DNA from: Marsupella aquatica | Lineage: Eukaryota > Plantae > Marchantiophyta | NCBI GenBank assembly: GCA_973895155.1 | Contig: OZ316892.1 | Span: 26,497,233 to 26,561,232, forward strand | Direction of reading: 5' to 3' | Length of the DNA: 64,000 nt | In this document: piece by piece, positions 1 to 59,300 of the stretch | How positions within the stretch are numbered: the stretch's first letter is position 1 | How the letters are laid out: each line of letters opens with the position of its first letter | Position numbers and translations under genes: made by a program | Notes under the pieces: generated by a model | Databases searched by the model: none | The model's input: the letters and a program-made list of their open reading frames with translations, nothing else | What the model was told of the DNA's origin: nothing

Positions 1-3000
1 GTGCAGTCACAGGTCCAGCTAGATGTTTTGAGGAGAGAAATCTGGCTGGAGGGGAGCAACAGTAGGCTAGTTGTGACCACAACCAATTCTGGCCTTGACT
101 CCCAGTCAAACACTTACAAGGTCGATTTCTCCCAGTCAAACACTTACGAGGTCGATTTCTTGGGCTACCAAGAATCGCGAGAATTGTTTTGTCATTATGC
201 ATTTCAAAACAGGGCCAGACCGGAGTGTCTCGCAAATCGTCTTCAACAAGTAATACAGAGATGCGGAAATTTCCCGTTGTCTCTCAAAATCCTGGGTAGT
301 TATTTGAGTGCAAAGGACGTGGATGACCAAAACCTGTGGAGCGATCTTCTTGTGAAGCTGGAAAATGCGGAAGAAGTTGCTAGCGGTCCTGATTACGGAC
401 TATGGGCAAGGTTAGGGCCCTGCTACTATGCTCTTGCGCCTTCAGAGCAAGAAATGTTTTTGGATGTTTCAGTTGTGTTTAGTGGTTATCCGTTGAACTT
501 GGTAAAGTGCGTGTGGAGCGCATGTCGGCAGTGTCCAACCATAGGGTGGAGGAATTTGGAGCGAGGATTTTTGGTCAGTGAGCATGGAGGGAGAATTTGG
601 ATGCACGAATTGTTGAGAAATCTAGGTCGAAGTATTGCATGTCCTCAAACATCTCCAAATAGCTGTGTTGACAAGTGGAGACGAATTTCTAGCGGATGCT
701 TGGAGAGGGATTTTATTGCCAAGTATCAGGTAATTTTACCATTCAGATTATTCCTATTGCTCAAACTCGGCATTCTCCAATGTATAGAAAGTGGCTGCTC
801 AACAATATATTAGCATTCGAAGATTTTTTCAATCAACTCAGTGTAATTGAGAAGATCGACCATGACTTGCTGTTACTTGATGATGCAGGGGTTTATGGAG
901 TCACTTTCGTTGGAGCTTCAAGCGCACGACAACGAAAGGTTGAGCTTGACAAACACGACACTAGCACAATATGTGAAGCTTGAATACTTGATCCTGGATG
1001 GTGTCGAGATGACTGAAGCAAGAGTGGAACTCCCCGGGTCCTTGGTCTATTTGAAATGGAAGGGTGCATTATTTGAGACTTGCCCCGTGGATTTCAACGG
1101 CTTGGGAAATTTGGTCGTCCTTGATCTACAATTCTGCAAAGCCATGACAAGTCTTCCTCCGAGTGTGGTGATAGCAAAGAAGCTGAAGTGGTTGGAGTTG
1201 GAAGGTTGCCAATCCCTCACAAAGCTGCCCGAAGGTCTGTATGAATTTAGTGATCTCGAGTACTTGGGCCTGACGATGACAGGCGTGGGCAAGTTGTCAA
1301 GCAAGTTGAGAAAGTTGAAGAAGCTGAAGTGGTTTCGAGCTGACCAGACGGGTTTGGCACGAGTTCCTGACGCGATAGGTCGCCTTACGATGTTAGAGAC
1401 TCTCGATATCAGCAGCACGACTGTGACAGTCCTACCAGAGTCCATTGGGGCTCTCAAGCACTTGAAAACTCTAAATGCCCGCTACACCTTGTTGAGCTCG
1501 TTGCCAGAGTCAATTGCTGATCTCGAGCTCTTGGAAACTCTAGATGCGGGAAACACATTCTTGAGGGCTTTGCCGGAGAGGATAGGTTGTCTCCGAAACT
1601 TGCAAGCCTTGTCGCTGGATGCGACCCGTATGGAGAGTCTGCCGGAATCATTGGGGAATGTCGTTGGATTGGAGTACTTGAACTTGAGGTCCACTCCCTT
1701 AGAAACACTACCGGATTCAATTTGTTTGCTCCGCTCTCTCGAAACCCTATTTTTGGATGACACACGAATAAGCACAGTTCCGGATGCATTTGGAGAGCTT
1801 GAGAGCTTGAATTCGTTGGACCTAAGCGGGTCAAGGGTGAGGTCCTTTCCGGAGACATTCAACAAGCTCTCCGAGCTGGTGTCTCTTCGGTTTACAGTCT
1901 CGACAAGTTTGAATGATGGCACACATCCATCAGGCTCAGGGACACACTCCACAATTTCGCGCAGCCGCCAAGATTTCTGGTGTGCGGTGGGCTTTTTAGC
2001 AGGAGAGAATCTTGAAGTCGAAGAGGAAGGGGAGATACCAGCTATGAGCCGCGCTCTTTTCTCCTTTACATTTCCGTTGTATAGAGTCAGGAGGCTGTCG
2101 ATAGTTGTTAAAAATTTCAGCGAATCTTCAATTCCAACTCTTTTTAATGCATTGAAAGAAATGACCTCCCTTGGTCACTTGAGTCTGGACGGGTTCAATG
2201 AGGTAGAGGCATTCCCTTCTGAACTAGGAACGCTAACTGGTTTAGAGACACTCGCAATCACATCTTGTGAGAGACTACGGGAGTTGCCTGATTCGTTCAG
2301 CTTGCTCAAGGCGCTGACTGAGCTAGAGTTAACTAACCTGCCGAGGCTGCTCAGACTCCCGGAGGGTCTAAACTGCGGCACGTGCATGGAAATTTTGACT
2401 GTAGTTAATTGTGGAAGCGTGCAGAGCATGCCCAGGTGTTTTGGGCACAAGTCCCCTTTGGACAGAGATTCCTCCCCAGCAGGTTCCGACGAAAGTGGGA
2501 ACTCCGACTCCAACCCCACTGTGTCTCAGGGGTTTAAAGTAATAGACATTACTACCGACTCGTGGAGACTCCTGCGATGCTGCCTAGAATGTCGTACGGA
2601 TCAAAGCTATAGCTTTCACATTATGTTCGGCATTAAGTGTGAGGAGATGGAGATGGAGACGGCGATGAAGATGGCAGTGAAATTGAAAGGGGATTCGGAG
2701 GCGGAATTCAAGTTGCCCACGACAGAGTTGAGGAAGCTGTGTTTGGAATGCCAAGTGGGAGATGACGGCCTCCATGGAAGCTTCACACCCTCCACAATCT
2801 GGGCCCCTTTGAACCTCGTGTCAAAATCTAAGATATATTTAGAAGCTGCAAAGAGTCATGAATGGAGATGGATCCACGAATTGCGAGTGAGAGTGCTGGA
2901 CATGGACGAAGAAGACAGTGAAGGCAAAGATGACAGTAACATAGAGGATTCAGACGAAGACACAGAGGACAGTGAAGACGGTTCAGACAACATTGAGGAG

Positions 3001-3105
3001 GCCCAAGGCATAGAGGACCAGGATAGCAAGCAAAGTGACGATGAGGAGATCCAGGCAAAGCGCAGGAAATTGAATGATTGGTCAAATGCAGGAAATTCGA
3101 CATAG
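1..3105 (+). CDS. NB-ARC-LRR immune receptor, 3' part (5' end outside window); exons <1-729 and 889-3105; paralog of 56389-61529
   Basis: RNBS-B (SRLVVTTT), GLPL-like GNFPLSL, MHD-like WMHELL. GT-AG phase-0 intron 730-888 (KYQ|GFME) joins the two ORFs. Many LxxLxxLxL LRRs, acidic tail ending AKRRKL. Confidence 0.9.
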
Positions 3106-5130: not shown

Positions 5131-7826
5131 TATTCATATTGTGCAATCTGAGTCACTGTGTGACCTTTTGGTGTGCCATTCTGCAGCTTAGTTGTTTCCA
5201 CTGCTCTGGTGAAAGCTGTGAAATGCGAGGCCAGCTCTATGCGGATGGTTGGCGAATGATTTTAACAAAAAGGGTTTAGCCAATTTTACTGTGTCCTTGC
5301 AGCGATTGCGAGTATTGACATGTTGATCTCTAATGCGTTTTGCACACATGGCTAGACGAATTCAAGAAGTTGGAACGTGCCATTGAGTCCATCGAACCTG
5401 AGAAATTGGATTATATGTCGTTCCCATTTCGATGGATTATAAAAGTGTTATCGAATGTAGAGGAACTTGTTTCAGAGAGTAACAGATAGAATCCTCCATT
5501 CTTTCTCCTAATTTGTAGTGAAATTGGAACGAAGAGGTTCAGATTCCGGAAATGACTTTTTTTGATTCCGTCACTCTTTGTACATTTTAGTGAATCATTA
5601 GACGTATAGCTTTCAATTTTTTGCCTCAAAAAACTCATTGAAATTCATCCAAAAAGCCAGCATACAACATTGGTGGCCCACAAAAGGGGGTCATCACCAG
5701 GGGGACCAAAGGTCGGGGAGTCAAGGGGACCGGAGAGGCCCGGTACCAGGAGAGAAGCCAGCCCAGCACCCAGGGAGCCAAACAAGACATTCAACTACTG
5801 CAGAAGGAGCGACATAACTCCAAAGACTGGCCAGTGGAGAGGTACCAGCAGGGCACCAAACAGTGGGTCCATGATATAGTCAAAAGCAATATTATGAGGC
5901 TTAAAATCTTCTATAGCTCCCCTCTCAGAATCAGATCTTGATGCGTACATCGCAGTCTGTGTCTGAGAACTCGGTTCGCATTATCAGAGGTTTACACTTC
6001 AACTTCCCTAAAATTGGCTTGAATCCTCTTGAATTTCCATGGTTCCTCACGGGGTTCCTCATAATTGTAGCGTCCTCTGCATTCCAGAATTTTATATTCA
6101 TATGGGAACATTTGGGGTTTGACATGAACAGCATCGATATCTGTTGCACTCGGCCTGATTCAATCAGTTTTCGAGGACTCCATTGTAGTGCCCCAAAGAT
6201 TTGAGTAGACAAATCTTAAACGGAGAAGAGATGATCGTGATTATCATGTTGAACAACCGAACATTTACCCAGCAACATGTGAATACAAAACTCACAGCGA
6301 CCTCCTGGTATAACTCTGTCTAAGTTAAGGTAAATGATCTTGTACAATATTGCTGAGTCCAGGATCTAGATACTCCAGTTCTTTCTCAGTGTATCTAATT
6401 TCTAGTGAGGGAGCGAATCTTGCATGTACTAGCGTGGAAGGAATCACGAAATCCAAAATTCGGTCAAGAAATCCAAAATTCGTCGGGAATATGTGAGTCA
6501 GCTGAGTTTCGCCCATAGAACCAGACGCGGCGGAATGGCACAACTCTAAAACTATATCAATGCGCCGCGAGCCCGCAATGTCAAAGACATGCCGCACTCA
6601 GGGTAACAATTGGACTGTCAGATCACGTTTCCATCGAAGAATCGAAAAAGAGAAGCAAACTGATTGTCATCTAGCAAGTACTATGTCCAAAACTGTAGCA
6701 ACGTTGACTCTCCAAATTTAGCTCTACATTTGGGTGCATGTTACCATCTGAGTGATCCCTTTACTGTTCAAGCGCGAAGCCTCTTCCAGGTAGATTTTGC
6801 TGCAGATTCGCATCAAGCAATTTGTGCTACCCGTGTCCAGAGAGTAAGTTGAGAGGGACTGATGATCATGATCGACTGCAAGTAATTCAGAAGTTGATGA
6901 TCTCGGAGTTCGATCGATACAGAACTTTCAAGCAAGTCCGACGATCAGAAACCTTCCTGGAAAGCTACCGCGACGTTTCAGACCACTTGCAAAGACACCT
7001 AAATGTGATCATTGCTATCAAGCCCGCTGTAATTGCAAGTCAAAAAGCAACAGCATATGGTGTACTGTGCTACTTGGCAAGTGTCCCCAGCTTAAAGGGA
7101 CTTTCCATAATTCATGATAAACCCAATTGAATGAATTGATCTTCAAGTGTCCACAAATTGAAGGGACTTTCCATATCATTTATCCCGTATCATTATTAAC
7201 CCAATTGATTTTCTACATCCCTGATTGTTATTCTTTCTACTTATCCTATATTGGCCATTTGTTTTGCAATTACCGCGACTCTATCAATACTAATGGCATG
7301 TCCTGGAAGTTTAGTGAAGGGAAAGCGCAAGGGAATAAAGAAAAGCAAAGATTTACTCATCGATCTGATAAAACATCAGAGTCAGCTTCGGATGACACGC
7401 AATCCCCGACTCTTAAGGGACAGGCAAGGCCAAGGATTGTTGGCCATGACCCGAATATCATGCATGTTGACATTATGACAGGTTAACCTGTGAAGAGCTC
7501 TCGGCAAGAAATTTATATCAGCGAAGCTAGGTCGCTAATTTGCAGTAAAGAAACCGAGGGGACAGACGACGATCCACGAAACGCTCAGACAGCTACAGCA
7601 ATCCACCAAGACTATTCACTTGATCCAAAAAAACCAGCGATGCCAGTCTTGCAATCCTGCTTTGAACGTGCTACGACAAAATGAGCACTTTAGCTTTAGC
7701 GTTTCTTGTACACTTGTGTTAAAGGTCTCGTGACGTGCATCTAATTGGAACCAGCAAATCAGTCTGGAATCTGGACAGAACGCACCGCTGGTCTGATGGC
7801 GTGTTCCCTGGCGCCAATGTTTATAC

Positions 7827-8127
7827 TGTTGGCAACATCTGAGTTACTCGTAAGCTAGGTAGAGATCTGAGTCACTCATGAGTTAGGAAGAGGCTGATCC
7901 GCTGACAGCATATCGGTATATAGGTGTAACTTAGGATTACCAACAGTTCAGCTCCGCACCTCTCTTGAATTGTCCCTCATGCTTACTTTACGGGAGAAGC
8001 ATTTGCTGTTGATCTTAGTTAGTAAAATATTCCATTGATCTCCCACTTATTCAGGCTCCCCCAGCCGCTATATATACTGCCGTTTGCGAGATCTTGTATA
8101 GCACACAATTTGGAGATTTCTCCGACA
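7827..8127. mobile_element. Probable solo LTR (301 bp)
   Basis: TGTTGG...CCGACA termini; absent from paralogous units B and C; imperfect 5-bp flanks tatac/catat. Confidence 0.5.
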
Positions 8128-8382
8128 CATATATAATCGATTGTGTGCCCTTCCCCGAAATCTGCTTCATAGACTCCAATTGCTTCAAAGTCCCGGCCCA
8201 TAGTTCTGCCGTTCACTCTCGAGTCCTGTACTACGATTTACACCTTTCCCAAGAAATGTGGAATCACTCTTCATTTGGCGCTTGTACTCTTCTCGTTAAG
8301 AGCTGTGCGGATCGAGAGGGTTCAATTTTGGATCGAGCTTTTCTGTAGCTGTTACTCGATCTACCTAGATCCGATACCAGCC

Positions 8383-9483
8383 ATGGCCGTAGTCGGTCTA
8401 ATTTCCCCGATGGTCACCACCATTTCACTTACACTAGCTGTAATCGTCCTATCCCTTGTCAGTTCAGGTGTAGTGCAAGGCAACTCTGATTCGGGCTCTG
8501 ATACCCTTCCTTTTCCGGTGCGCTCTGTCTATCAATTCCCCGTCAACACATTCGTCGAGAACCTAGCTGTTCGCTCCAATGGTCAGATACTGATCACGCT
8601 GATCACATCTCCCAATCTTTTTCTCTTGAACTCCAACCAGACCGGGCAACCGACACTCGTACACCGCTTCGATGGGTACGAAAGCATGTCGGGCATAGCC
8701 GAGTACAGGCCGGACATGTTCGCTGTCAGCACAGGAAACTTCACCCTCGCAGCTCGCAACATCGCCCCGAGCACATGGGCCGTGTGGAGAGTCGACATGC
8801 GCAACGTCCAGCAGCAGGCAGACGGAACTCTAAGCCCTGCTCCGTTAGTCTCCAAGATCACTGACGTCCCAAACGTTTTCCTGAACGGGATGTCTCTGCT
8901 GTCCGAAGACAAGGGCACCATCCTCCTCGGTGACTTCGTTGGTGGCCAAATTTTTCGGCTCAATGTTGAGACCGGAAATTTACAGCTAGTAATCGCCAAT
9001 ACCTTCACGGCTTCGGCTTCTTTAGCAAATCCAGGACTTCCACCCCTCGGTGTCGACGGCGTCCGTGTGCGAGGAGACTCTGTCTACTTTGCCAATGCAG
9101 GCAAGGGTATCTTCGTTAGGCAGCCGATCAATGAGGACGGAACGCCGAATGGGAAAGGAGTTATCCTGGCCAACGCTACATGGCAATTCGACGACTTCAA
9201 TTTCGACACTCATGGGAATGCGTATCTGGTCACAGGAAAGGGTAACTCGATACTGAGGGTCTCGCCCGATGGAAGTAATCAACAAATCATTGCCGGAGAC
9301 GTGTTCTCGACCCTGATTGCGGAACCAACTTCTGCCGCGTTTGGGAGGGGACCACGTGACCAAAATACTCTGTACGTGACTTCCGCTGGAGGATTGTTCG
9401 CGCCAATTAATGGATCCATCATCGTTGGTGGTCAGGTTCTCGCGATTACTACCAACGCGAAAGGAGTACCGACATTATTCTAA
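8383..9483 (+). CDS. Secreted six-bladed beta-propeller protein (SMP-30/gluconolactonase-like, fungal-type), 366 aa, intronless
   Basis: N-terminal hydrophobic signal; motifs VYQFP..FVENLAVRSNG, GIAE..PDMFAV, FLNGM, GVDGVRV, FDDF, PTSAAFGRG..LYVT. The ATG at 8383 is conserved in the paralogs. Confidence 0.85.
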   Translation: MAVVGLISPMVTTISLTLAVIVLSLVSSGVVQGNSDSGSDTLPFPVRSVYQFPVNTFVENLAVRSNGQILITLITSPNLFLLNSNQTGQPTLVHRFDGYESMSGIAEYRPDMFAVSTGNFTLAARNIAPSTWAVWRVDMRNVQQQADGTLSPAPLVSKITDVPNVFLNGMSLLSEDKGTILLGDFVGGQIFRLNVETGNLQLVIANTFTASASLANPGLPPLGVDGVRVRGDSVYFANAGKGIFVRQPINEDGTPNGKGVILANATWQFDDFNFDTHGNAYLVTGKGNSILRVSPDGSNQQIIAGDVFSTLIAEPTSAAFGRGPRDQNTLYVTSAGGLFAPINGSIIVGGQVLAITTNAKGVPTLF

Positions 9484-12400
9484 ACAAACCAGGAGATCGT
9501 TGTTTTCATCGATTTCCTTCTCCTCAAGTTCGAAAACTCTGAAATATTGTGTAGAAGAGATATATATGAACAGTGTTGATCGAGCACATCACACTCTTCT
9601 AGTTTGAGAAGACAAAATAGATTAGAATCATAGTTCTAGGTGTATGTAGGAGGTTGTTTGGTGACCATCACCTTGACCTTTGGAAATACACAGGGATGAA
9701 TCTTTTTTGGTTGGCCAATTTACGGCATTAATATTCGTACGCAGGATTTGGGTTTGTGAACGGCACAAAGGGAAACTAAAGTCCAAGTTTTCTGTACAAA
9801 AGTCGCCACGGTCCTTGGACTTTGTCAGTACGACTCCAGGCACTGCATCTAACTAAGGATACAAGTGAAATATAGGAAGATCTCCGGCCAGTAGTATCTA
9901 GAGATTGAATGTGTTTGTGACAGTGACCAGTAACACACCTCAGAAGTGTCACCTCTTGCTGTATATCTAGTCCCACACCAGACAAAAACACCCTAGGAGA
10001 AACAATTTTTAATTAATTGCAAGCTCGAGATTTTCGAATCAAATCTAACTCTTTTCAGGCGATTGGATGAGACTATCAACTTCATTCTGTTCAATTTCTG
10101 ATAAAGTCTTTGCCGAGTAATTTCATGCTATTGCCGGCAACCCTGTCCAATTTCCGCAGCATAGATATAGATAGACTAATTAACACCCAAATTTCAATTT
10201 CAAACGGAGCGTTCGCATACTAGTGCAATTTGTGGGAATGGCTACAGTACGATTAATCATTGACTGTCTGATTGCTACTTTAGCTTGTCCAACAAATTTT
10301 ATATTAGATCAATTCCAAGATCTCTTATGTCTTCTTCTTTGATTCTTTCTCTTCTCCAGTAATTGTCGCACTCGTGCTCAGAGTACTGTCGACCCGTTCA
10401 CTCTCCTTATATGGTCAGTTTACACCTTACGTCCAATTTTGTGGACCGTACGCTTGTTGAACAGCTTTCTGCGGCACTTTCGAAATGCCCGCAATCAATT
10501 ACGCAGAATGAGTTCTCCTTAACTAACGGCAATGCACACCTTTCTATGTCCAGGATTGTCCAAATTATGAAGTCAGAGCAGGAATCACACAACATCAATT
10601 ACGCACACAGTCGAGCAAGTTGATATCGAGGGAACTGAGGAGGTCCCAGGATTCGCTGGAGTTCATTCAAAAGGTTCGCACACTGCGAATGAGTGTTCAT
10701 GTAGTGGTAGCAGAGGCTACTAAATAACATACAAATCACTCAGGCATCAGGATTCTCAGAGATCGCTGCAGATTTACTGGAGAGCAATGAGAATAATATG
10801 AGTCAATAACCCGTGAAACTGTAGACGACCACCTCTAGGCTTTGTATAACTTTGCACTAATCAGCTTCCATGCTCACCATTAATACTGGTGGAGTAATTG
10901 AACACTGTTGTTGGAGGGAGAGAGTTTAAGCCATATCCCATTCAGTGCAATTTAACGAAATTTCAGCGAGGGAGAGGGTGTGACAGAAACGTCAGCTACG
11001 ATGGCCAAACGGTGACGTATGCAGATAACCTTTTTTCCAGAGTTTGGGGTCAGCCCAGCTCAGGCGGGCAGCCATCGTCATAATATAATGTAAAATATAA
11101 AATATCACAACAACTTTTCATGCAGGCCAGAAAGTAAATTGGTCCAAACAAATTAAATTTGCTTGAGAGCAAAAGAAAATTTACTACACAGGCCGAAAAA
11201 CAAAGAAACAAAAATGATCGCTGCAACTCTCCATGACAAGTCTCATTCTGGGCTCTTAGAATGAGGGGAAGCTTTTCACCAGCTACGGAATGGCTTCCAT
11301 GCAATGTCAATGGAACGAGGATAATGTAGCTGTGCTTAACGCTTGAAACAAATAAAATACACTTTGCAAGAGGCCAGAGCACTTTTTATTAACACTCAGT
11401 GAGGGAGCAGAAATCAGGAACGGGCAGCAAACGCTTCGAATGATACTCTAATTACCCAGACCCCTCAGAGACTCAAACACACTAATCTTGTACTCATCGA
11501 GATTTGCACAGATCTCCTTCGATTCTATGAGGACCGGTGAGTATTTCATCGAGATTTTCCTCCTGAACCATTCATCCACGCAAATTAATACACCAAGCAG
11601 GATGAGGCGTGGTATACCTCTACGGTATTCAGCCTCCATCTTCACGTGTGACATTAAACTGGAGTTCGCGGAAAGAGAGACATGACAGTGGCCACGGCGT
11701 CTTGGAGTCAAAGCACGATCAAGTGACAGTGGAGAGAAGTTTTGTTTTAGTTTGTTTTTCTTCATATTTAACTTAATTTGATTTCATTGAGGTAGGCACA
11801 AGCAGGGCAGCTCAGGCAGGTAGGTGAGACCGGAGCGATGTCCGGGTGGATCTGATAGATGATGCAGGAAAATCCATCTTTTGGTGAACTGCTAGGATTT
11901 GCTCTCGTGGTTTTTACTTTTTTTAAACACACCATCATTCACCACCATTTTTGGTAGGATTGTTTGTTATAGAGTTTGATAGATGATGCAAATTACATAT
12001 CATTTTAATTTGGACATATTTCACTTCACTAGGTTGTTTCCCCTTTGATTTGGAAATTGCCTTTGTCATACTTTGTTTCTCCGTGGCCATAAGCGTACAA
12101 ACGCACAAATTACGTTGTTGTCTAACTACAGTAGGCTACTCATATGAATCGAGAATCTCCACAACCCTCCAACTTCGGTGATTGAATACACATGAAACAA
12201 TGGGGAAATTGAAAAAAGAAGTCACCAGAGCTACCTACTATATTAGATGAAGCCCGCTGCCCGCCAACTGGGCAATGCTAATCTTGCTAATAAAGTGCTG
12301 TGCTAAGCTACTTTCAAGGGCTACTGTCTAGAGTAAAGCCTCTAGAAGGTAACTCTCAATAGGACAAAACTGAAAAGTGAAGGTGGACCCAAAAAAAAAA

Positions 12401-12904
12401 AGACAGAGAGCAAAGATTAACAAAACTGACATTGACTCTATAGTATGACAAAACTAGGAGTGACTTTCAATAAAGACAAAATAGAGATGAGGGTGAAAAA
12501 AAAGAGGCAGAGACAAACAAGAGCATCTTTGTTTACTAGATTTTTTTGTCTTATATTGTTTACGTTCAAAGATGGGTAATCAGGCTAGTAGATTATACTT
12601 GTCACATAGTGGGAGTTGGCTTGGTTGGTCACGCCCCCCAAGCAAGGCCCAGTTTGCCAGTTTTTGCATTAATTAGCAAGCTAGCCTTGGAAAAGCGCGC
12701 ACAGGGCTAAAACCTTTTCACTAGACCACAACTTTATAAGTACTTACCCACTTTTCAGTAAATGCACAAAATCATGATGCACCCTCTTATCAGTAAATGC
12801 ACAAAATTATGAAATTGAATGAATGCACAGATAAATGCATGCCCATTCTTAGTAGAGTTTAGAATGCACTTAAAGAGGGTGGGCACAGGATTAGGGCAGG
12901 CATT

Positions 12905-15959: not shown

Positions 15960-17050
15960 ATGGCCGCAGCCGGTCTAATTTCGCCGATGCTCACCACCAT
16001 TTCACTCACGCTAGCTGTCATCGTCCTATCCGTTGTCAGTTCAGGTGTAGCACAAGGCAACTCTGATGCCCTTCCCTTTCCGGTGCGCACTGTCTATCAA
16101 TTTCCGGTCGGTGCATACGTCGAGAACCTAGCTGTTCGCTCGAATGGTCAGATCCTGGTCACGATTATCACCTCTCGCAATCTTTTTCTCTTGAACTCCA
16201 AGCAGATCGGGAACCGACACTCGTACACAGCTTCGACGGGTACGAAAGCTTGTCGGGCATAGCCGAGTACAGGCCGGACATTTTCGCCATCGGCACAGGA
16301 AACTTCAGTGTCGCAGCTCTCAACGTCGTCCCAAGCACATGGGCCGTGTGGAGAGTCGACATGCGCAACGTCCATCAGCAGGCAGACGGAACACTAAGCC
16401 CCGCTCCGTTAGTCTCCAAGATCACCGACGTCCCAAACGTTTTCTTGAACGGGATGTCCCTGCTGTCCGAAGAGCAGGGCACCATCCTCCTCGGTGACTT
16501 TGCTGGTGGCCAAATTTTTCGGCTCAATGTGGATACTGGAAATCTACAGCTAGTGATCGCCAATACCTTCACGGCTTCGGCTTCTTCAGAAATTCCACGA
16601 CTTCCACCCGTCGGTGTCGACGGCATCCGTGTGCGAGGTGACTCTGTCTACTTTGCCAACGTCGGCAAGAAAATCTTCGTTAGGCAGCCGATCAATGAGG
16701 ACGGCACACCAAATGGAAACGGAGTCATCCTGGCCAACGCTACATGGCAATTCGACGACTTCAATTTCGACACTCATGGGAATGCGTATCTGGTCACTGC
16801 AGGAAAGGGCAACTCAATACTGAGGGTCTCGCCCGACGGAAGTCGTCAACAAATCGTTGCCGGAAATGAAAACTCGACCCTGATTGCCGAGCCAACTTCT
16901 GCTGCATTTGGGAGGGGGCCATGTGACCAGAACACTCTGTACGTGACTACTGCAGGAGGATTGCTCGCACCCATTAATGGATCCATCACCGTTGGCGGTC
17001 AGGTTCTGGCGATTAGTACCAACGCGAAAGGACCACCGACATTGTTCTAG
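15960..17050 (+). pseudogene. Beta-propeller paralog with 1-bp frameshift near 16212
   Basis: ORFs 15960-16262 and 16250-17050 together align to 8383-9483; gggaaccg here versus gggcaaccg in the intact copy. Confidence 0.8.
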
Positions 17051-17916: not shown

Positions 17917-18392
17917 TGTGATCCTTCTCAATAGAGCGAACATAACAATTTTACACACATCAATTGACTGAGACTACACATTGAGAATAGATGGTGTACA
18001 GATTGTCCTCTTTATTTTCCCCATATTCTCCGTGAAGAGAATCGAACAGAAAGCTTAAGAAATGAACTCAGATCAATACCGCAGAGGGAGGGAGAGATGA
18101 ACCTTAATACCTCACATCCCCGCGGATAAACGAGACAATTCAAATACAGAGAATTGAACGTGAACTCCTTACAACGGAAAGCAGAGAACTCTTAAAACAC
18201 TGACACGTGGTGAGTTCAACGACTTACACCCGCGGCAGTTTACATGAGTAAAGTAAAACCGGAAACTCTTAAGAAATGACACGAGGAGTGCAGACAATCA
18301 CCTGCAACATTTTACATGAGAAATAAGTAACCGAAGAAACTCTAACGACAGATAGCAGTCGATCAGAAGAGAAGACAGATCATCCTGTCACA
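17917..18392 (-). repeat. Copia 3' LTR
   Basis: Direct repeat of 22779-23254 with about 7 substitutions counted by eye. Confidence 0.95.
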
Positions 18393-18426
18393 GACCCCCC
18401 CCCCCGATCGCTGCTAGCAAACATGA

Positions 18427-21400
18427 TCAATCTTTTTTAGGAAATACAATGAGTCCAAGAAGTTGAATGAAGTAACTAAATTTGACCCCAGCAAGTGGCT
18501 TAGTCAATCCATCAGCGGGCATATGATCAGTGGACAAGTATTTCAAAAGAACAGTGCCTTTCTTGACTTGCTCACGAACATAGTGCCAGTGGATTTCAAT
18601 GTGCTTAGTCTTCTGATGATGTTCGGGGTTGACAGTCAGCGCCAGAGCAGGCTTATTATCCCCATAGATGACCACAGTAGAAACATCTGAAGAATTCACT
18701 GAGAGCTGTTGAAGCAGCGCACAAAGCCAAACCGCCTCCTTCGTAGCAACCGAATACCTAATGTACTCAGCTTCCGTAGAGCTAGTGGCAATGTGAGGCT
18801 GCTTCCGGGACTTCCAACTAATAGCACCTCCTGCTAGTTTGAAAACGTAACCTGATGTTGATTGTCGATCAACCGAGTTGTCTGCAAATGAAGCATCACA
18901 GTATCCTTGAAAATTGAGCAAATGAATCTCAAGACCTGGCTGAGCATCATGATAATACTGAAGCCCAAGTGTGAGAGTCCCTTTAAGGTATGCCAATACA
19001 TGCCGAATACTACTTTGATGTTTAGATGCAGGGTTATGCGCAAATTGCCCAAGACGAGAACACCGCTCAGCCAAGTCCGGTCGTGTCCAGACTGCAAGAT
19101 ACATTAATGATCCCACCATGGATTGCTAGAGCTGACGCTGATCAGTCGTAGCCTCCATCATGCTAGGTAACAAAGTGTCACTCCCTGTAGATGGTGCAGA
19201 GGCAGCAAGCGCATCGGCCATATGGAATCGCAAGAGAACTTTCTGAGCATATTTGGGTTGCGCAACATAGAGATACCCCTTTTCACAATCTCGGTAGATA
19301 GAAAGGCCTAAATATTCCTGTAAATCTCCAAGTTCACGTATCTCATACTTGGAAATAAGGATTGTCCGCATGTTCTCAACACCAGTGAGAGTCGGGGATA
19401 TGGTGATGATATCATCAACCCATAAGACAATGAGATCCCCACACTGATGTCTAAAAACACACGGATCAGAAAGCAAAGGCAGAAAATTATTACGAGCAAG
19501 ATGGTCTGTGATTTCTTGATACCACAATCGAGGCGATTGACAAAGACCGTAGAGCGCTTTGAGAAGGAGCCAGACAAGTAATCTTCCAGTAGCATCATAT
19601 GTCTCATAGCCAGGTGGTGGGCGAATATAAATCGGAGTATGCCCAGCAAGTAAAGCATACAAAAAAGCTGTAATGACATCAAAACTTTAGCCTCATAATT
19701 GTTTTGAGCAATCATGGCCATAAGCAGAAGGTTTCTGGACATACAACAAACGCAAATGTATCCTCATAGTCTTCTCCAAGTCTCTGCTTATCACCGCAAG
19801 CCACAAACCTAGCTTTGAACAAACCATTGGGCTTACGTGTATAGAGCCATTTTGAGGGCAGCATTCGGGCACCAGGTGGTAAAGTAACAAGACGAGCCAC
19901 CTGATGTTTCTTCAATTGATCAAGCTCGCGTTGCTCTGCTTCTTTCCATTGATCAGCATCTGGTCCAGCCATTGCAGCCTTATGCATCATCGACGTTTCA
20001 TCAGATGACGAAGAATAAAGCCCCATGGAATAAGAATACAGAAGCGAAGATGGAACATGCGCCAGAAGACCTGTAGCTGAATAACGAAGAGGAGGAATAC
20101 CGCGAGTTGATCGATTAGATTTCCGAGTACCAATTGGGACTTCAACAGGAGAAGTAGAGCAGCAGCAATAGCCGCCGTAGCATCGTCTTGAAATTCATCA
20201 GATACAGCTCCAAGCGGTGGAAACATGACAGGATATTGCACGGCCTCCTCTGAGAGATCTGGGGAGACTATCGTTGATGACGCTGGAGTCATGGTGGGAG
20301 ACTCATATGGTACAAGTGTCGGCCTCTCATGTGGTACTGACACATAAACTGTAGTCGGATCACTGTCAAGCAGTAGGGTAGAATCATTTGTGACATCTTG
20401 AATTGGACATATAGAGCGTGAAGTTTCATCAACCGTGACATATGCAGAAATGGCAATTTGATCAGAGTCAGGGTACCAGATGCGGTAATTCAAACCATCT
20501 ACATAGCCTACAAGAAAACCACGTTGAGCACGAGGCTTGAATTTGTCACCGTGGAGGCACTTCTCAGGTGGCGTATGAACATAGGCAATAGCACCAAATG
20601 TTCGTAGATGAGAAATGTTTGATGTATAATCACGCTTCATTGCAGCATGCAGCCAAGCAATGGGTGACATGTCATCAGGATTGACGCTTGTAGGCGTTCG
20701 ATTTGTGATGTAGACTGCAGCAGTAACAGCTTCCGGCCATATTCGAGAAGGTAAGTGTGAATCAAGGAGCATTGCTAGCGCCTTCTGAGTAACAACACCG
20801 TTCGCCCGTTCAGCAATCCCATTTTGAGTGTGGTGATATGGAGCAGAATGTACAACACGCACACCCTCTCCTAACAGAAACTCCTTGAACGCATTACTGC
20901 CAAACTCGGTTCCATTGTCACTATGGAACTCCAAAATTGGAGCCGAATACTGATTGTGAACCGCAGCAAAGAATTGTTTCACAAGTGGAAACACTTGAAC
21001 CTTATTTTGCAGACAAAACACCCATTGATACCGTGAATAATCGTTGGTAATCAACAAGAAATACTTGTAATTACCCAGGCCGATTGTAGAAATAGGGCCG
21101 ACAACATCAAAATGTACTTTATGAAATGGTCGGGATGCACGGGTGTGTGATGCATGGCAGATAGTCCGAGAGGACTTGGCTAAAGCACAGGCATTGCAAG
21201 GCTGAAAAGGCGTAGAATCATCAAGATTGATATGCTCTTGACGGAGGAAACTTTTAAGGCCATCAACATGGAGATGTGCAAGTCTACGATGTAAAGTATT
21301 GAGGCTAATAGATTGAGTGACAAAACAACTAGCCAAAATGTCAGGAGGAGACGAAGTGTGCAAAACGTCGGGAGGAGACAAAGTGTGCACAGAGAAAACC

Positions 21401-22687
21401 TTCAGACCGTCAATTTTCTTCGCCGAAGCAAATTCTTGTCCTGTAGGACGTGCAACAAATCGTGACTCCCATCCGTGCCAGTAGACGCCCTTTTGCTCTA
21501 AAAGATGCTCGGAAATAGTATTGAGAACACTGGTCGGCATGTAACGAACAGCATGTAATTGGATTGGTCGATAAGATTGATCACTCAACTGTAGTCGTAA
21601 ATGAACTTGACCATATCCCGGTGAAATGGTGAGACCCCCTCCAGTATTGATGGAAAGTGGATCTGAAATATACTCTTGAAAAAGTAATTTGTCATTGCAG
21701 AAATGATGGTTTGCTCCCGAGTCAGCAATCCATGTCGAAGTATCGCTTATCGGACCTGCCTCACGATGCGATTGAAGAGAAAACTGAACAAAATCGAACA
21801 GATTTAAAAATGGAGGAGATGATGACTCCGCTACAGATTTAGAAATCTGAACATGATTGTTACCCTTCAACTTCTGCTGAATCCTCTGCTCAGTAATAGT
21901 ATTTGGCTGCCAACCAGGCCTGCAAAGATGAACATGCTTATAATAACACATTTCCTCCTTGTGACGTGGTAACCTACAATATTGACACAGTTCCTTTGAA
22001 CTCGTGGGGAGAACGGAATGAGGAGCAGTGGCAATTTTGAACAGTAGCAACTTGAAGAGTAGCACGGGTTTGACGTTCTTGGCGCGCCTTGAATTCATCT
22101 TTTGCTTCCAGGATCAACAAATCCAGCGTAGGGAGATCAAGAGGATTCCGCCTCATGTGCTCACGCATATTCGTAGCCCAATGATCGAAATGTGGATTAA
22201 GAATATGCAAAAATTGCATTACCTGAACAACTGGATCAATAGTCATACCAGCAGAGATGCATCAATCGATTGTATCCCGATATTGTTCGCCAAATACCTC
22301 CATCTCTTCACCATTGTATTGGTAATTGACAAATTGAACCCAAAGATCATGCGTCTGCAGAAGTCCCTGCGGTTCGTACTGCTTCTTCAATTTATCCCAA
22401 CAAGCCTTCGCTGTAGGAACCTTGGCAAGTGTAGTCTGAATGTGCGGCTTACATGTGGACAGAATAATCATCCGAGCATGAGCTGCCTTCTCGTGGTATG
22501 TTTCAAGCCGAGCCTGAAACAGATACGCCTTCTCATCAGCTTCCTGAACTGGTGGAACTGCTGTCCCATCCACGAATTTCCACCTGCCAGTTGATGCAAG
22601 ACTTGCAGAGACAAGAACTTGCCATGCATCGTAGTTAGCATTGCCATCCAACTTGGGAATAGCATGACTCGAATCACGTAGAGACAT
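18427..22687 (-). pseudogene. Copia gag-pol polyprotein, disrupted
   Basis: Gag (KLDGNANYDAW), zinc knuckle CQYCRLPRHKEEMC, protease WIADSGA, GAG-pre-integrase HRRLAH, integrase SDNGTEF/QNGIAER, RT LWVDD, RNase H YCDASFA/KTKHI. Several frameshifts and stops. Confidence 0.93.
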
Positions 22688-22767
22688 CCCTAGACAACTC
22701 TTTCAAACAAAAATGTGAACTAGAATGTAAAGATGTGTGAGCTTTAGAACAAGCAAACTTGTTTAAA

Positions 22768-22778
22768 GGCCCATAACC
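22768..22778 (-). promoter_or_regulatory. Primer binding site GGTTATGGGCC (half-tRNA-iMet type)
   Basis: Directly abuts the 5' LTR on the minus strand; same type as Drosophila copia/Ty5 PBS. Confidence 0.8.
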
Positions 22779-23254
22779 TGCGATCGTTCTCAATAGAGCG
22801 AACATAACAATTTTACACACATCAATTGACTGAGACTACACATCGAGAATAGATGGTGTACAGATTGTCCTCTTTATTTTCCCCGTATTCTCCGTGAAGA
22901 GAATCGAACAGAAAGCTTAAGAAATGAACTCAGATCAATACCGCAGAGGGAGGGAGAGATGAACCTTAATACCTCACATCCCCGCGGATAAACGAGACAA
23001 TTCAAATACAGAGAATTGAACATGAACTCCTTACAACGGAAAGCAGAGAACTCTTAAAACACTGACACGTGGTGAGTTCAACGACTTACACCCGCGGCAG
23101 TTTACATGAGTAAAGTAAAACCGGAAACTCTTAAGAAATGACACGAGGAGTGCAGACAATCACCTGCGGCATTTTACATGAGAAATAAGTAACCGAAGAA
23201 ACTCTAACGACAGATAGCAGTCGATCAGAAGAGAAGACAGATCATCCTGTCACA
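22779..23254 (-). repeat. Copia 5' LTR
   Basis: Direct repeat of 17917-18392, followed by TSD AATTT. Confidence 0.95.
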
Positions 23255-24845: not shown

Positions 24846-27064
24846 CTGCACATTATCCAGAATAATCAACACGTCTTTGCCCTTCAAGTAATGAGGCACA
24901 TTGAAATGGTCATAATGTGATCCTTCGCCTTGTCGTTTCAATGAAATTTCAATCTTTCTCAAAACCTCTTCGCTGCTGTTTGAATTTGCTTCAAAATTGT
25001 CCAGATTTATGAAGCATGTGATTGGAAAGGTGTGAGAGATGTCATGGAACACCTGTTGTGCTAACGTGGTCTTTCCGATGCCGCTGAGCCCAACAATGAA
25101 GATGGTGTGTGCATTGGGCTTGGCCAACATACTTATGACTTTTGTTGTGCGACCTTCAAAGTCAACAACATACCCTCGACGACTAACAGCATCGGCCGCA
25201 TCTCCTGATCGAAGGATATACTCTGCACGTATCTACAGTTGCATAATTGCTATGTCAGAAGCAAAGAGGGACTCTTCTGTAGTAAGCCAAGAGGAACGTT
25301 CTTACTAAAAAACCTTGCAATATCTAGACCAAAGCGACTAAACGTGACTCTCATGACTCGATTGGGATTTCCTCGCAAAAGAACTGGACAAAAAATCATA
25401 CGATATTAAATAAGGTTTGCTACGACAGTCTGTCGTCAGGTCTCACACACACATACATTTAACCGCCACAAAGTTTACGTCAATCTCTTGTCCTTTCAAC
25501 TATTTTCCCCTCTCCCATTGCTTACTTAAAAGCACGCTCCAGGAACATAATTTGCATAGTTTACAGGGACCATAGATATGATACCTGGCGGAGGAACTGC
25601 TGAAGAAATGAGAAAGCACTTGATTGTTTCCCCTTTGGCTTACATAAGTCAGAATGATTTGCATCAACAGAATAATAGATATCCATGTTCGCCCTACTCG
25701 ACGCTTCAGGAACTAAATGAAGATACTTTCCGAGGACATCCTACATCACAAAACACTGTCTGTATTAGACATCCTACATGACAAAAGATTGTCTCTAGTA
25801 GACATCACAGTTGGGAAATTTCCATGAAAGCCAACAGCAGCTTTAAGGTAAGAAAGTCCTCATTTACAGGCTACTAGGCCCCCACACAGTTGGAATATTC
25901 AACTAGCAAGGTGGGGGGCGTACTACTAGAAACAATGAATGAGAGAGAATCCATTGAGAATTTTCTGTGAAGGACTACCAAGCTAACTAATAAACATTGG
26001 GGATTCAATCAAGCTAAGGGATCACTGGCCAAGTAAAATAATACACTTTTGTAACAAAAAACATATCAGAGCCAGGAACGTTCGAGTACCAAATGTTTCT
26101 TGTGTTTCATCCATTCCATAGGTGAGCCATTTGCGACGGGACTTCAAGTCCGAAAAGCTTGCATTCTTCCTTGCACCGCTGGCATTGAGGATCTCAATTT
26201 CAGCCAAGAGTGCACCGCTGGCATTGAGGATCTCAATTTCAGCCAAGAGTGCACCATTGAAGCAATCAGGGAGCTTTTCACCCAGAAATGATCCAAGGTG
26301 TGGTGTGCCATAAAAGAACATGCCTCTAAGATTATTGAACCAGTTGTGAATGCGTTGCATTCCGGGAATTTCGTCCCTCTTTTGGCTCAGCGTCATATTG
26401 GCATGTAGGCATAGTTCCTTGAGTAGGAGCCCTCCGAGACAATGGCCCACCAACACTACTGGGCATTGAGCTTCACCAACCCGTGTGGTATCATTGGTAA
26501 GTGCCGACAGTAAATTCTCCCTTGTCAAGAACATATCTAGCCTCCCTTTCTCATTTGTCCTTTTGGCGACGGAATCATAACTGTTAGGATGCGAGCTTTG
26601 GGAAATGTTTCTACAAGCCATGATTGTGGCCAAAACTCAGAGTTGTCATGTGACATCCATGCTGTGATGTGGGCCTCGTTGCAAGCTTTCAGCTGAAGTC
26701 CGTGGAATAACACAATCTCGATTTCTGGCTTCTGCTCATGTGGGGGCCTGTAGACTTCATATACCATATCATGGAGCTGCAAGGTAATCGCATCTGTATT
26801 AGTCAAGTGTACAACACCAGATCGGACACAGATAAAAGATCTACCAAATAGGTGATTCGAACATACATCTACCATTGAACTCTATTGACTTAAGATGTAG
26901 GGTCTTCGGCCCACATTGGTCACAAACAATGAACGATATGGTTTCCCACATACCTGAACGAGCTCGGGTACAACCAGTTGAAAACTCGAACTTGCAGCAG
27001 AGGTAAATACTCCTTGCAACTTGTTCCAAACACCGAGCACCGAGTCCAACGGAGGTTCAGTCAT
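24846..27064 (-). pseudogene. Truncated hydrolase-NB-ARC pseudogene (inverted copy of the 5' half of the 56389 gene)
   Basis: Same exon layout (exon 1 27064-26954, exon 2 from 26776). 4-bp deletion near 26580, 39-bp tandem duplication near 26173-26250. P-loop GLSGIGKTT; homology ends right after Walker B (IILDNVQ). Confidence 0.88.
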
Positions 27065-41725: not shown

Positions 41726-42825
41726 CTATAACAATGTCGGTGCTCCTTTCGCGTCGGTACTAATCGCCAATACCTGACCACCAACGATGATGGATCCATT
41801 AATCGGTGCGAGCAATCCTCCTGCGGTAGTCACGTAAAGAGTGTTCTGGTCCCATTTCCCCCTCCCAAACGCGGCAGAAGTTGGCTCCGCAATCAGGGTC
41901 GAGATCACGTCTCCGGCAATGATTTGCTGAAGGCTTCCGTCGGGCGAGACCCTCAGTATCGAGTTGCCGCTTCCTGTGACCAGATACGCATTCCCAACAT
42001 TGTCGAAATTGAAGTCGTCGAATTGCCATGTAGCGTTGGCCAGGATGACTCCGTTTCCATTTGGTTTGCCGTCCTTTTTTATCGGCTGCCTAACGAAGAT
42101 TTTCTTGCCTACATTGGCAAAGTAGACGGAGTCACCTCGGACACGGACGCCGTCGACACCGAAGGGTGGAACTCGTGGAATTCCTAAAGGAGCCGAAGCT
42201 GTGAGGGCATTGGCGATCACTAGCTGTACCTTTCCGGTATCGACATTGAGCCGAAAAATTTGGCCACCAACAAAGTCACTGAGGAGGATGGTGCCCTCGT
42301 CTCGGGACAGCAGCGACATCCCGTTCAACGTGACGTTTTGCACGTCGGTGATCTTGGAGACTAATGGAGCAGGGCTTAGAGTTCCGTCTGCCTGCTGCTG
42401 GACGTTGCGCATGTCGACTTTCCACACGGCCCATGTGCTCGGGGCGAAATTGAGAGCTGCGAGGGTGAAGTTTCCGTCATGACGGCGAAAATGTCCGGCT
42501 TGTACTCGGCTATGCCCGTCAAGCTTTCGTACCCGTCGAAGCTGTGTACGAGTGTCGGCTGCCCAGTCTGGTTGGAGTTCAATAGAAGAAGAGTGGGAGA
42601 GGTGACAAGCGTGACCAGGATCTGACCATTCGAGCGAACAGCTAGGTTCTCGACGAATGTGCCGACGGGGAATTGATAGACAGTGCGCACCGGAAAAGGA
42701 AGGGAATCGGAGCCCGAATCATAGTTGCCTTGCGCTACACCTGAACTGACAAGGGATAGAACGATTGCAGCTAGTGTGAGTGAAATGGTGTTGAGCCTCG
42801 GCGAAATTAGACCGGCTACGGCCAT
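41726..42825 (-). pseudogene. Beta-propeller paralog with 1-bp frameshift near 42475
   Basis: ORFs 42825-42376 and 42427-41726 together align to 8383-9483. Confidence 0.8.
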
Positions 42826-51795: not shown

Positions 51796-51980
51796 CCTTG
51801 CAGATTCTACAATAACAAAAACATTTTTAGCATTCATTCGCCATACACTCTTCAAGATAAAAATGATAATAAAATACAATGAAGAAAAATAAGTAATACA
51901 TTTAATTCATATGACATTATTAAAATAGATAATAGTTCATGTCATCTATCATTGTCATTCATGATGAAACTATGTCATCC

Positions 51981-56388: not shown

Positions 56389-59300
56389 ATGGCTGAACCT
56401 CCGTTGGACTCGGTGCTGGGTGTTTGGAACAAGTTGCAAGGAGTATTTACCTCTGCTGCAAGTTCGAGTTTTCAACTGGTTGTACCCGAGCTCGTTCAGG
56501 TATGTGGGAAACCATATCGTTCATTGTTTGTGACCAATGTGGGCCGAAGACCCTACATCTTAAGTCGATAGGGTTCAATGGTAGATGTATGTTCGAATCA
56601 CCTTTTTGGTAGTTCTTTTATCTGTGTCCTATCTGTTGTTGTACACTGGACTAATACACATGCGATATCTTGCAGCTCGATGATATGGTATATGAAGTGT
56701 ACAGGCCCCCACATGAGCAGAAGCCAGAAATCGAGATTGTGTTATTCCACGGACTTCAGCTGAAAGCTTGCAACGAGGCCCACATCACAACATGGATGTC
56801 ACATGACAACTCTGAGTTTTGGCCACAATCATGGCTTGTGGAAGCATTTCCCAAAGCTCGCATCCTAACAGTTTGTTATGATTCCTTCGCCAAACGGACA
56901 AGTGAGAGAGGGAGGCTAGATATGTTCTTGACAAGGGAGAATTTACTGTCGGCACTAACCAGTGGTACCACACAGGTTGGTGAAGCTCAATGCCCAGTAG
57001 TGTTGGTGGGGCATTGTCTTGGAGGCCTCCTACTCAAGGAACTATGCCTACATGCCAATATGACGCTGAGCGAAAAGAGGGATGAAATTCCCGGAATGCG
57101 ACGCATTCACAACTTCTTCAATAATCTGAGAGGCATGTTCTTTTATGGGACACCGCACCTTGGATCATTTCTGGGTGAAAAGCTCCCTGATTGCTTCAAT
57201 GGTTCACTCTTGGCTGAAATTGAGATCCTCAATGCTAGCAGTGCAAGGAAGAATGCAAGCTTTTCGGACTTGAAGTCCCGTTGCAAATGGCTCACCTATG
57301 GAATGGGTGAAACACAAGAAACATTTGTGGTACCCACGTTCTTGGCTTTTTCTTATGAGAAAAGTGTATTTACTTGGCCAGAAATCCCTTAGCTTGATTG
57401 AATCCCCAATGTTTATTAAACTAGCTTGGTAGCCCTTCACAGAAATTTTCTCCATGGATTCTCACTCATTCATTGTTTCCAGTTATACAGACCCCCACCT
57501 TACTCGTTGATAATTCCAACTACGTGGGGGCCTAGTAGCCTGTAAATGAGAACTTTTTTATCTTAACGCTGCTGTTGGCTTTCATGGAATTTTCCCAACT
57601 GTGATGTCTAATACAGAGAATGTTTTGTCATGTAGGATGTCCTCGGAAAGTATCTTCATTTGGTTCCTGAAGCGTCAAGCAGGGCAAACATGGATATCTA
57701 TTATTCTGTTGATGCAAATCATTCTGACTTATGCAAGCCAAAGGAGAAACAATCAAGTCCTTTCTCATTCCTTCAGCGGTTCCTCTGCGAGGTATCATAT
57801 CTTTGGTCCCTGTCAATCATGCAAATTATCTTCCTGGAGCGTGCTTTTAAGTATGCAATGGGAGATTGACGTAAACTTTGTGGCGGTTAAATGTATGTGT
57901 GTGTGAGACCTGACGACAGACTATAGTAGCAAACCTTATTTAATATCGTATGATTTCTTGTCCAGTTCTTTTGCAAGGAAATCCCAATCAAGTCATGAGA
58001 GTCACGTTTAGTCGCTTGGTCTAGATATTGCAAGGTTTTTTAGTAAGAACGTTCCTCTTGGCTTACTACAGAAGAGTCCTTCTTTGCTTGTGACATAGCA
58101 ATTATGCAACTGTAGATACGTGCAGAGTATATCCTTCGATCAGGAGATGCGGCCGATGCTGTTAGTCGGCGAGGGTATGTTGTTGACTTTAGAGGTCGCA
58201 CAAGAAAAGTCATAAGCATGTTAGCCGATCCCAATGCACACACCATCTTCATTGTTGGGCTCAGCGGCATCGGAAAGACCACGTTAGCACAACAGGTGTT
58301 CCATGACATCTCTCACACCTTTGCAATCACATGCTTCATAAATCTGGACAATTTTGAAGCAAGTTCAAGCAGCAGCGAAGAGGTTTTGAGAAAGATTGAA
58401 ATTGCGTTGAAACGACAAGGCGAAGGATCACATTATGACCATTTCAATGTGCCTCATTTCTTGAAGGGGAAAAACAATTTGATCGTTCTGGATAATGTGC
58501 AGTCAGAGGTCCAGCTAGATGCTTTGGGCAGAGAAATCTGGCTACACGGGAGCGACAGTAGGCTAGTTGTGACCACAACCAATTCTGGCCTTGGCTCCCA
58601 GTCAAACACTTACAATGTGGATTTCTTGGACGACGACGAATCGCGAGAATTGTTTTGTCATTATGCATTTCAAAACAGGGCCAGACCGGAGAGGCTCGCA
58701 AATCGTCTTCAGCAAGTAATACAGAGATGCGGAAATTTCCCGTTGTCTCTCAAAATCCTGGGTAGTTATTTGAGTACGGAGGACGTGGACGACCAAAATC
58801 TGTGGAGAGATCTTCTTGTCAAGCTGGAAAATGCGGAAGAAGTTTCTAGCGGTCCTGATTACGGACTATGGGCAAGGTTAGGGCCCTGCTACTATGCTCT
58901 TGCGCCTTCAGAGCAAGAAATGTTTTTGGATGTTTCAGTTGTGTTTAGTGGTTATCCGTTGAACTTGGTAAAGTACATGTGGAGTGCATGTCGGCAGTGT
59001 CCAACCATAGGATGGAGGAATTTGGAGCGAGGATTTTTGGTCAGTGAGGATGAAGGAACTATTTGGATGCACGAATTGCTGAGAAATCTAGGTCGAAGTA
59101 TTGCATGTCCTCAAACATCGCCAAATAGCTGTGTTGACAAGTGGAGACGAATTTCTAGCGGATGCTTGGAGAGGGATTTTATTGCCAAGTATCAGGTAAT
59201 TTTACCATTCAGATTATTCCTATTGCTCAAACTCGGCATTCTCCAATGTTTAGAAAGTGTCCGCTCAACAATATATTAGCCTGCGAAGATTTTCAATCAC

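Follow-up and report, generated by a model that had tools for sequence, protein, structure and literature searches.

A probable ascomycete-derived gene for a secreted-type β-propeller protein and its tandem copies in an NLR- and transposon-rich region of the liverwort Marsupella aquatica

The window, i.e. the whole 64,000-nucleotide stretch of Marsupella aquatica contig OZ316892.1 that was analysed, contains an intact β-propeller gene (copy 1), two frameshifted copies of this gene, NLR sequences, and several transposable elements. The main features are as follows.

1..3105 (+), 3′ part of an NLR gene, comprising the LRR and the end of the NB-ARC domain, 5.3 kb upstream of copy 1
6537..11043 (+), duplicated block that contains copy 1 and non-coding flanks and matches the copy-2 and copy-3 blocks in patches (67–84% identity)
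8383..9483 (+), copy 1, intact intronless gene for a secreted-type six-bladed β-propeller of the EupfF/PycR1/2p4o-related SGL subfamily
8383..8481 (+), residues 1–33, signal peptide predicted from hydropathy and a low-pLDDT N-terminus outside the propeller
15960..17050 (+), copy 2, 90% DNA identity to copy 1, with an in-frame deletion of 12 bp and, near 16212, a 1-bp frameshift
17917..23254 (−), copia LTR retrotransposon, with 476-bp LTRs that are 98.5% identical, TG..CA ends, and a 5-bp target duplication
24846..26779 (−), truncated and frameshifted hydrolase-NLR gene (hydrolase plus start of NB-ARC)
41726..42825 (−), copy 3, 89% DNA identity to copy 1, with a 1-bp frameshift near 42475
56667..61529 (+), hydrolase–NB-ARC–LRR gene with three inferred introns, best matching Calypogeia fissa (46–52%)

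Copy 1 consists of a single ORF (8383–9483, + strand) that encodes 366 amino acids from ATG to TAA and contains neither an internal stop codon nor an intron in the coding region, which gives the intronless gene described in an earlier note its exact coordinates and an uninterrupted frame. All of the motifs quoted in that note were located in the protein, namely ENLAVRSNG, GIAEYRPDMFAV, FLNG, GVDG, DDF, and PTSAAFGRG..LYVT. The signal peptide proposed there corresponds to the only hydrophobic stretch of the protein, with a 19-residue Kyte–Doolittle mean of 2.21 from residue 13 (the best value after residue 40 is 1.55); it is predicted from hydropathy, and its cleavage site, after VQG, was placed by eye using the −3/−1 rule. 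The protein has four N-glycosylation sequons and no cysteines, and it is likely to be secreted and glycosylated through the ER. The GC3 value of copy 1 is 0.57, compared with 0.55–0.56 in the LRR exons of the NLR genes, and the composition of the gene is uninformative as to its origin.

The amplification that the earlier note suggested is represented in the window by copies 2 and 3 (15960–17050, + strand, and 42825–41726, − strand), which had been missed or just implied. Each of them carries a single 1-bp deletion, and neither has a stop codon in the frame of copy 1. The deletion in copy 3 was seen in contigs from two of four sequencing runs (X1 and X4) and was not shown in the other two (X3 and X5); this frameshift is real and possibly polymorphic. 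The 1-bp deletion in copy 2 was absent among the 12 listed of 19 indels in the read contigs and may thus be an assembly error. The three copies reside in duplicated blocks of ∼4.5 kb each, which have non-coding flanks in common, and the copy-2 block is split just downstream of the gene by the young copia element, the pol region of which is distributed over several ORFs (17917–23254, − strand). The dN/dS values between the copies range from 0.32 to 0.50, below neutrality (Fisher p 2e-8 to 7e-4). High-copy short repeats at 5628–5700 and 12305–12460, with a contig depth ∼20 times that of the flank, bracket the copy-1 block. In run X1, the summed contig depth approximately doubles over the 3′ third of copy 1 (9121–9438), and this rise, together with loose contig ends at 9121 and 9438, suggests that more partial copies are present elsewhere in the genome.

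The hydrolase–NB-ARC–LRR gene at 56.7–61.5 kb contains in-frame GT–AG introns at 57330–57635, from 57792 to 58115 or 58127, and at 59196–59342, which were inferred via tblastn with two Calypogeia NLRs and by reading of the sequence; introns had been ascribed to the NLR neighbours before. The best four matches of its NB-ARC domain are from Calypogeia fissa (46–52%), in line with the bryophyte host assumed in the earlier note, and the other 8 of the 12 are angiosperm NLRs at 28–30%. Bryophyte NLRs with hydrolase N-terminal domains are described in PMC11218826. The 5′ half of the hydrolase-NLR gene is also present as an inverted 3.5-kb duplicate with 86% identity (24846–28337, − strand, versus 55206–58502, + strand), which has a frameshift near 26580 and ends inside the NB-ARC domain. 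A CACTA-type element (Transposase_21 and DUF4218) at 33932–38358 (+) is preceded by an ORF that matches a SET domain (E 1.3e-4) and may be a SET gene carried by the transposon, and a tandem repeat lies at 32420–33430. Remnants of a hAT transposase (46919–49299, + strand) are found beside a protein-kinase fragment (52344–53301, − strand) and ORFs at 50389–51837 (−), all flanked by an inverted match (46158–46532 and 54167–53797) with arms that are 70% identical, and the whole may be one large kinase-carrying element. No co-transferred fungal genes were found among the scanned window ORFs, and only 1 of 76 extra ORFs matched Pfam, the match being a kinase fragment.

The AlphaFold model of the copy 1 protein, built from an 82-sequence alignment, is an all-β propeller with a mean pLDDT of 90.1 and has the six-bladed fold of the SMP-30/gluconolactonase/LRE lactonases. 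PycR1 (7x2n), EupfF (7x36), and Nostoc 2p4o ranked top in Foldseek (TMq 0.71–0.73, 24–25% identity), and the next matches were Drp35, the luciferin-regenerating enzyme, and Rpa3624. Among solved proteins, PycR1 and EupfF were also the best matches by sequence (E 1.7e-25 and 8.4e-23). The Pfam SGL profile (PF08450) matched copy 1 with an E value of 5.5e-5 and 23.3 bits, under the gathering cut-off of 26.3, and is present in many close homologues of copy 1. A plant strictosidine-synthase-like protein was also considered; no Str_synth or SSL_N Pfam match was obtained at E ≤ 0.01, and no such protein occurred among the sequence or structure matches. Kinship with the EupfF/PycR1/AsR5 propellers rather than with plant strictosidine-synthase-like proteins, as proposed earlier, agrees with these results.

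In total, 85 homologues with E ≤ 1e-3 (best E 2.6e-115) were obtained from 7827 candidates. These comprise 5 proteins of Calypogeia fissa (51–58% identity), 28 of named ascomycetes (28–52%), including Trichoderma, Cladobotryum, Scytalidium, Cytospora, and Parahypoxylon, 50 without an organism name, and 2 of bacterial type, one from a cyanobacterium (30%) and one a Dinobryon EukProt entry (27%). The best matches to copy 1 are tandem genes of Calypogeia fissa (57–58%), and its closest non-plant relatives are ascomycete genes (up to 52%), so the fungal affinity that the earlier note had recognized from motifs is upheld. The identity to one ascomycete subfamily is ∼50%, versus ≤30% to bacterial types. 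Calypogeia fissa is the sole plant species named by two word-indexed searches, and the plant distribution is thus thinly sampled. In the ESM Atlas, the best four clusters among the matches listed are 99–100% eukaryotic, with Ascomycota commonest. An index-free search gave 2326 representatives; among 20 matches that were looked up, every one with a name came from an ascomycete or Calypogeia or was of bacterial type, and a scan of GTDB genomes with patterns of the close clade gave one locus at 28% identity. Among the bacterial-type homologues, P0083, P0245, and P0247 are fused to DJ-1/PfpI or truncated-haemoglobin domains. The protein of the chrysophyte Dinobryon (P0085) groups with this type, representing either a separate transfer or a contaminant.

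The secreted ascomycete SGL proteins (Trichoderma, Cladobotryum, Scytalidium, Cytospora, and Parahypoxylon) and the tandem copies of Calypogeia fissa share 42–58% identity with copy 1 over the whole propeller and fall into the same clade. Judged by its sequence, copy 1 is a member of this uncharacterised, mostly non-clustered ascomycete subfamily. The earlier note had also taken the lack of introns as a sign of transfer. The ORF does lack introns, but a single ORF is also what most metagenome loci of the family show (67 of 80; contig ends truncate 7 of the remaining 13 loci, and another 6 are split), a proportion taken from loci that were not de-duplicated and from a pattern search that favours uninterrupted genes. 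The absence of introns is therefore weak evidence that needs no retroposition, and its use as proof of transfer or retroposition is ruled out.

Trees were calculated after the exclusion of 8 of 250 proteins that covered <75% of the profile, the careful trees being based on subsets of 72, 45, and 39 rows. In the IQ-TREE analysis of 72 rows, copy 1 grouped with Calypogeia and P0002 (a Logan protein) with support of 98/96, and this liverwort group lay inside a 43-row clade of the ascomycete subfamily with support of 97/92, in which the named fungi are Hypocreales, Diaporthales, Xylariales, and Scytalidium. The copy 1 branch is the longest in the liverwort clade. A mixture model applied to 45 rows supported the same two nodes at 99 and 97. 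With 39 rows, to which P0043 and P0253 were added, support dropped to 94 for copy 1 plus Calypogeia and was 91 for the subfamily; P0253, a candidate further plant copy, groups with Scytalidium instead. The transfer proposed in the earlier note accords with the nesting at 97/92, but in the AU tests neither a liverwort clade outside all fungi (p 0.367, with a long outgroup) nor one outside its 31-row subfamily (p 0.093) was rejected. The long outgroup means that the root of the tree is weakly fixed. Because un-nested trees are not rejected, the nesting rests on branch support, distribution, and MAD rooting, in which the liverwort stem ranked 349th of 454 branches (228 non-bacterial rows).

These un-nested trees and the existence of bacterial homologues (2p4o and P0083) could be cited for vertical descent from an ancient eukaryote followed by numerous losses, for a separate acquisition from bacteria, or for a transfer from liverworts to fungi. 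Such origins are nevertheless very unlikely, given the identity of ∼50% to one ascomycete subfamily against ≤30% to bacterial types, the position of the MAD root far from the liverwort stem, and the contrast between the named fungi, which span many lineages of Pezizomycotina and have deep paralogs, and the single plant species named. The transfer of the propeller gene from a fungus to liverworts is, in contrast, highly probable from the trees and from a distribution that is broad and paralog-rich in Pezizomycotina, and a single event common to the copy 1 lineage and Calypogeia is probable as well.

Fungal contamination or an assembly chimera would be another source of a fungal-type gene. Ascomycetes live in Calypogeia fissa and other Jungermanniales (PMC7062687), and copy 1 and an NLR exon never occur on one of the Logan contigs. 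The stretch is, however, represented in five sequencing runs from three studies, and contigs from the three studies bridge copy 1 and its flank: 7872–8716 and 9408–12378 in X1 (which may be the source data of the assembly itself) and 7781–8461 in X3, all with 0 differences, and 9163–10148 in X5 with 37 differences. There are three diverged copies within duplicated blocks, two of them frameshifted and one block split by a plant-type copia insertion, which makes contamination unlikely; in addition, fungal-type genes were not found among the scanned window ORFs. The sister clade resides on a chromosome-scale scaffold of another liverwort, as the tandem homologues of Calypogeia fissa have near-consecutive accessions on a 66.6-Mb contig, with others on an 8.3-Mb contig. 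Contamination or chimerism, a concern raised earlier, is thereby largely refuted and extremely improbable, although no contig reaches an NLR exon; copy 1 is physically part of the plant genome.

Several residues of copy 1 rank among the most conserved positions of the 82-row alignment and can be compared with the metal site of Rpa3624, a mapping made by motif and profile rather than by residue-level superposition.

8557..8559 (+), E59, predicted Ca2+ ligand that is the same in all 82 aligned rows, the equivalence with Rpa3624 E15 being inferred from blade position
8884..8886 (+), N168 (in FLNG), predicted Ca2+ ligand; 77 of 82 rows have N here, whereas EupfF and PycR1 have Q
9055..9057 (+), D225 (in GVDG), predicted ligand corresponding in position to Rpa3624 N172; of the 82 rows, 45 have N here and 37 have D
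9190..9195 (+), D270–D271 (in DDF), predicted ligand/catalytic pair approximately corresponding to Rpa3624 D229–S230, each D in 80 of 82 rows

Rpa3624 holds Ca2+ via E15, N123, N172, D229, and S230, and its D229 has been proposed to activate water (PMC9843451). The predicted calcium site of copy 1 (E59–N168–D225–D270) differs from the canonical E-N-N-D in having Asp as the third ligand, as mapped by motif and by a weak match of the family profile to Rpa3624 (E 0.31), which, read without gaps, sets the GV(N/D)G position against N172. The Ca2+ lactonases compared (Rpa3624, Drp35, SMP-30/LRE, and Nostoc 2p4o, a putative lactonase) resemble copy 1 in fold (TMq 0.59–0.71) and have the E/N/x/D metal site that is also predicted in copy 1, but they show only 13–24% identity to it; copy 1 has Asp at the positions of both N172 and S230 of Rpa3624, and unlike these lactonases it is predicted to be secreted and glycosylated.

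Because of the conserved E59, N168, D225, and D270–D271, the known Ca2+ site of Rpa3624, and the profile alignment, a secreted or apoplastic Ca2+-dependent lactonase or esterase is favoured as the product of copy 1, a best guess that we hold with slightly less than even confidence. The Ca2+ ion would sit at the top of the propeller channel and D270 would activate water, as has been proposed for D229 in Rpa3624, so that small lactones or esters would be hydrolysed outside the cell by the secreted product of the intact copy. Hydrolysis is also hinted at in the wider family by the homologue PvL7, for which a part in the removal of an anhydride ring during cornexistin synthesis has been predicted (10.1101/2021.10.26.465875). 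Two caveats apply to the hydrolase reading: copy 1 has Asp at the N172 position of Rpa3624, where the N172D mutation lowers efficiency to 0.5% (PMC9843451), and its closest relatives of characterised function catalyse dehydration and cycloaddition rather than hydrolysis.

Those relatives are the basis for a different chemistry with the same fungal origin. Terpenoid Diels–Alder adducts occur in liverworts, and an enzyme acting like EupfF, PycR1, and AsR5 could feed this terpenoid chemistry. In the mechanism described for such enzymes (PMC9503010 and PMC5958101), Ca2+ would serve as the Lewis acid by which an aromatic alcohol is dehydrated to give a quinone methide, with the enzyme steering the (hetero-)Diels–Alder addition to a terpene. 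Consistent with this, PycR1 (7x2n) and EupfF (7x36) are the top matches among solved proteins in both sequence and structure (TM ∼0.73); they and AsR5 share with copy 1 a signal peptide, the propeller fold, and the motifs EN..G(I/V)(N/D)G..DDF..PT.AFGR..LYVT, including EN and DDF. The same role was given to liverwort ‘EUPF’ by Dong et al. (PMC12513842). Copy 1 is, however, just ∼25% identical to EupfF and PycR1, against ∼50% to uncharacterised fungal proteins; it lacks the 13–15-residue insertion that both solved enzymes have after D184, and it has N168 in blade 3 where both have Q. Unlike the EupfF, PycR1, and AsR5 genes, it has no adjoining tropolone/humulene cluster, neither a PKS nor a humulene-synthase-like ORF being found among the 15 + 76 window ORFs scanned, and among 22 scanned fungal loci from the wider family (30–41% identity to copy 1), just one has a PKS within 8 kb. 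A pericyclase of this kind is therefore rather unlikely. The single PKS neighbour is a highly reducing PKS 4 kb from the family member at L002:7758–16899.

The protein may alternatively have kept its fungal origin but taken on a non-catalytic or unrelated extracellular role, as a binding, decoy, or wall-associated protein under relaxed selection, which we consider unlikely on balance. The long branch of copy 1 (0.55–0.72, versus ≤0.26 for the Calypogeia rows), the moderate dN/dS values (0.32–0.50), the frameshifts in two of the three copies, and the departure of the metal site from E-N-N-D are all compatible with such a loss of activity, but the five predicted ligand positions all still carry a carboxylate or amide and are highly conserved across the family.

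For the preferred reading, we propose that one transfer at the DNA level from a donor of Sordariomycete or Leotiomycete type would have taken place before the split from Calypogeia, and that the intact copy 1 and its two frameshifted neighbours would descend from this one ascomycete-derived gene in a liverwort ancestor. The ascomycete symbionts known from Calypogeia fissa and other Jungermanniales (PMC7062687) indicate a route for the transfer and not a donor. The product would pass through the ER, where it would acquire its glycosylation on the way to secretion, and copies would undergo tandem birth and death in a region of fast NLR and transposon turnover. Taken as a whole, this explanation, i.e. 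an ascomycete-derived gene for a secreted Ca2+-binding propeller that likely hydrolyses small lactones or esters extracellularly, appears evenly poised.

No functional pairing of the propeller gene with the NLRs was found. In Calypogeia, none of four NLR matches lies on the 66.6-Mb or 8.3-Mb contigs bearing propeller genes, which is weak evidence against a conserved propeller–NLR pairing, and it is simpler to assume that both types of gene happen to share a fast-turnover region. A role at the plant–microbe interface, with tandem birth and death in the NLR/transposon region rather than a partnership with NLRs, may well apply, the case for and against being about equal. A bolder scenario, in which leafy liverworts co-opted a secreted fungal propeller of the hetero-Diels–Alderase superfamily either as an intermolecular pericyclase for terpenoid defence or as an apoplastic disarmer of fungal lactone toxins and signals, with immune-gene-like turnover in NLR clusters, is distinctly unlikely.

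A liverwort ‘EUPF’ of fungal derivation is named in one main-text sentence by Dong et al. (2025), with a function taken from annotation (PMC12513842). It is very probable that this ‘EUPF’ and copy 1 belong to the same orthogroup, because a close fungal relative of copy 1 is annotated as ‘hetero-Diels-Alderase-like’; as proposed here for copy 1, the reported case is a transfer of an EupF-annotated gene from fungi to liverworts, and the transfer of copy 1 is thus probably already in print. No other treatment of the gene was found among the papers listed on HGT in liverworts or Calypogeia, and among the matches listed for EUPF and liverworts since 2025, EUPF occurred only in PMC12513842. Whereas the function in Dong et al. 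is based on annotation, copy 1 is placed here at ∼25% identity to EupfF, in an uncharacterised subfamily, and on such comparisons the eupenifeldin claim is not supported for this gene. Other fungus-to-bryophyte transfers (the fungal fruit-body lectin, microbial terpene synthases, and KP4) resemble copy 1 in their LTR-rich setting and suspected defence role (PMC12513842; PMC11906373) but are backed by functional data, whereas copy 1 is known from sequence and a model.

As an evolutionary event, the transfer is one among many, 1,809 HGT families having been catalogued in streptophytes (PMC12513842). What the locus adds is the placement in an uncharacterised subfamily, the tandem birth and death of copies in two liverworts, and grounds for questioning the eupenifeldin annotation, by which the published annotation-based claim of a liverwort ‘EUPF’ that makes eupenifeldin would be corrected for copy 1. 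A fungal gene present in at least two liverwort species and amplified in tandem in both offers a clean and testable case, in which one enzyme assay would give the ascomycete subfamily its first function and show why the plant kept the gene.
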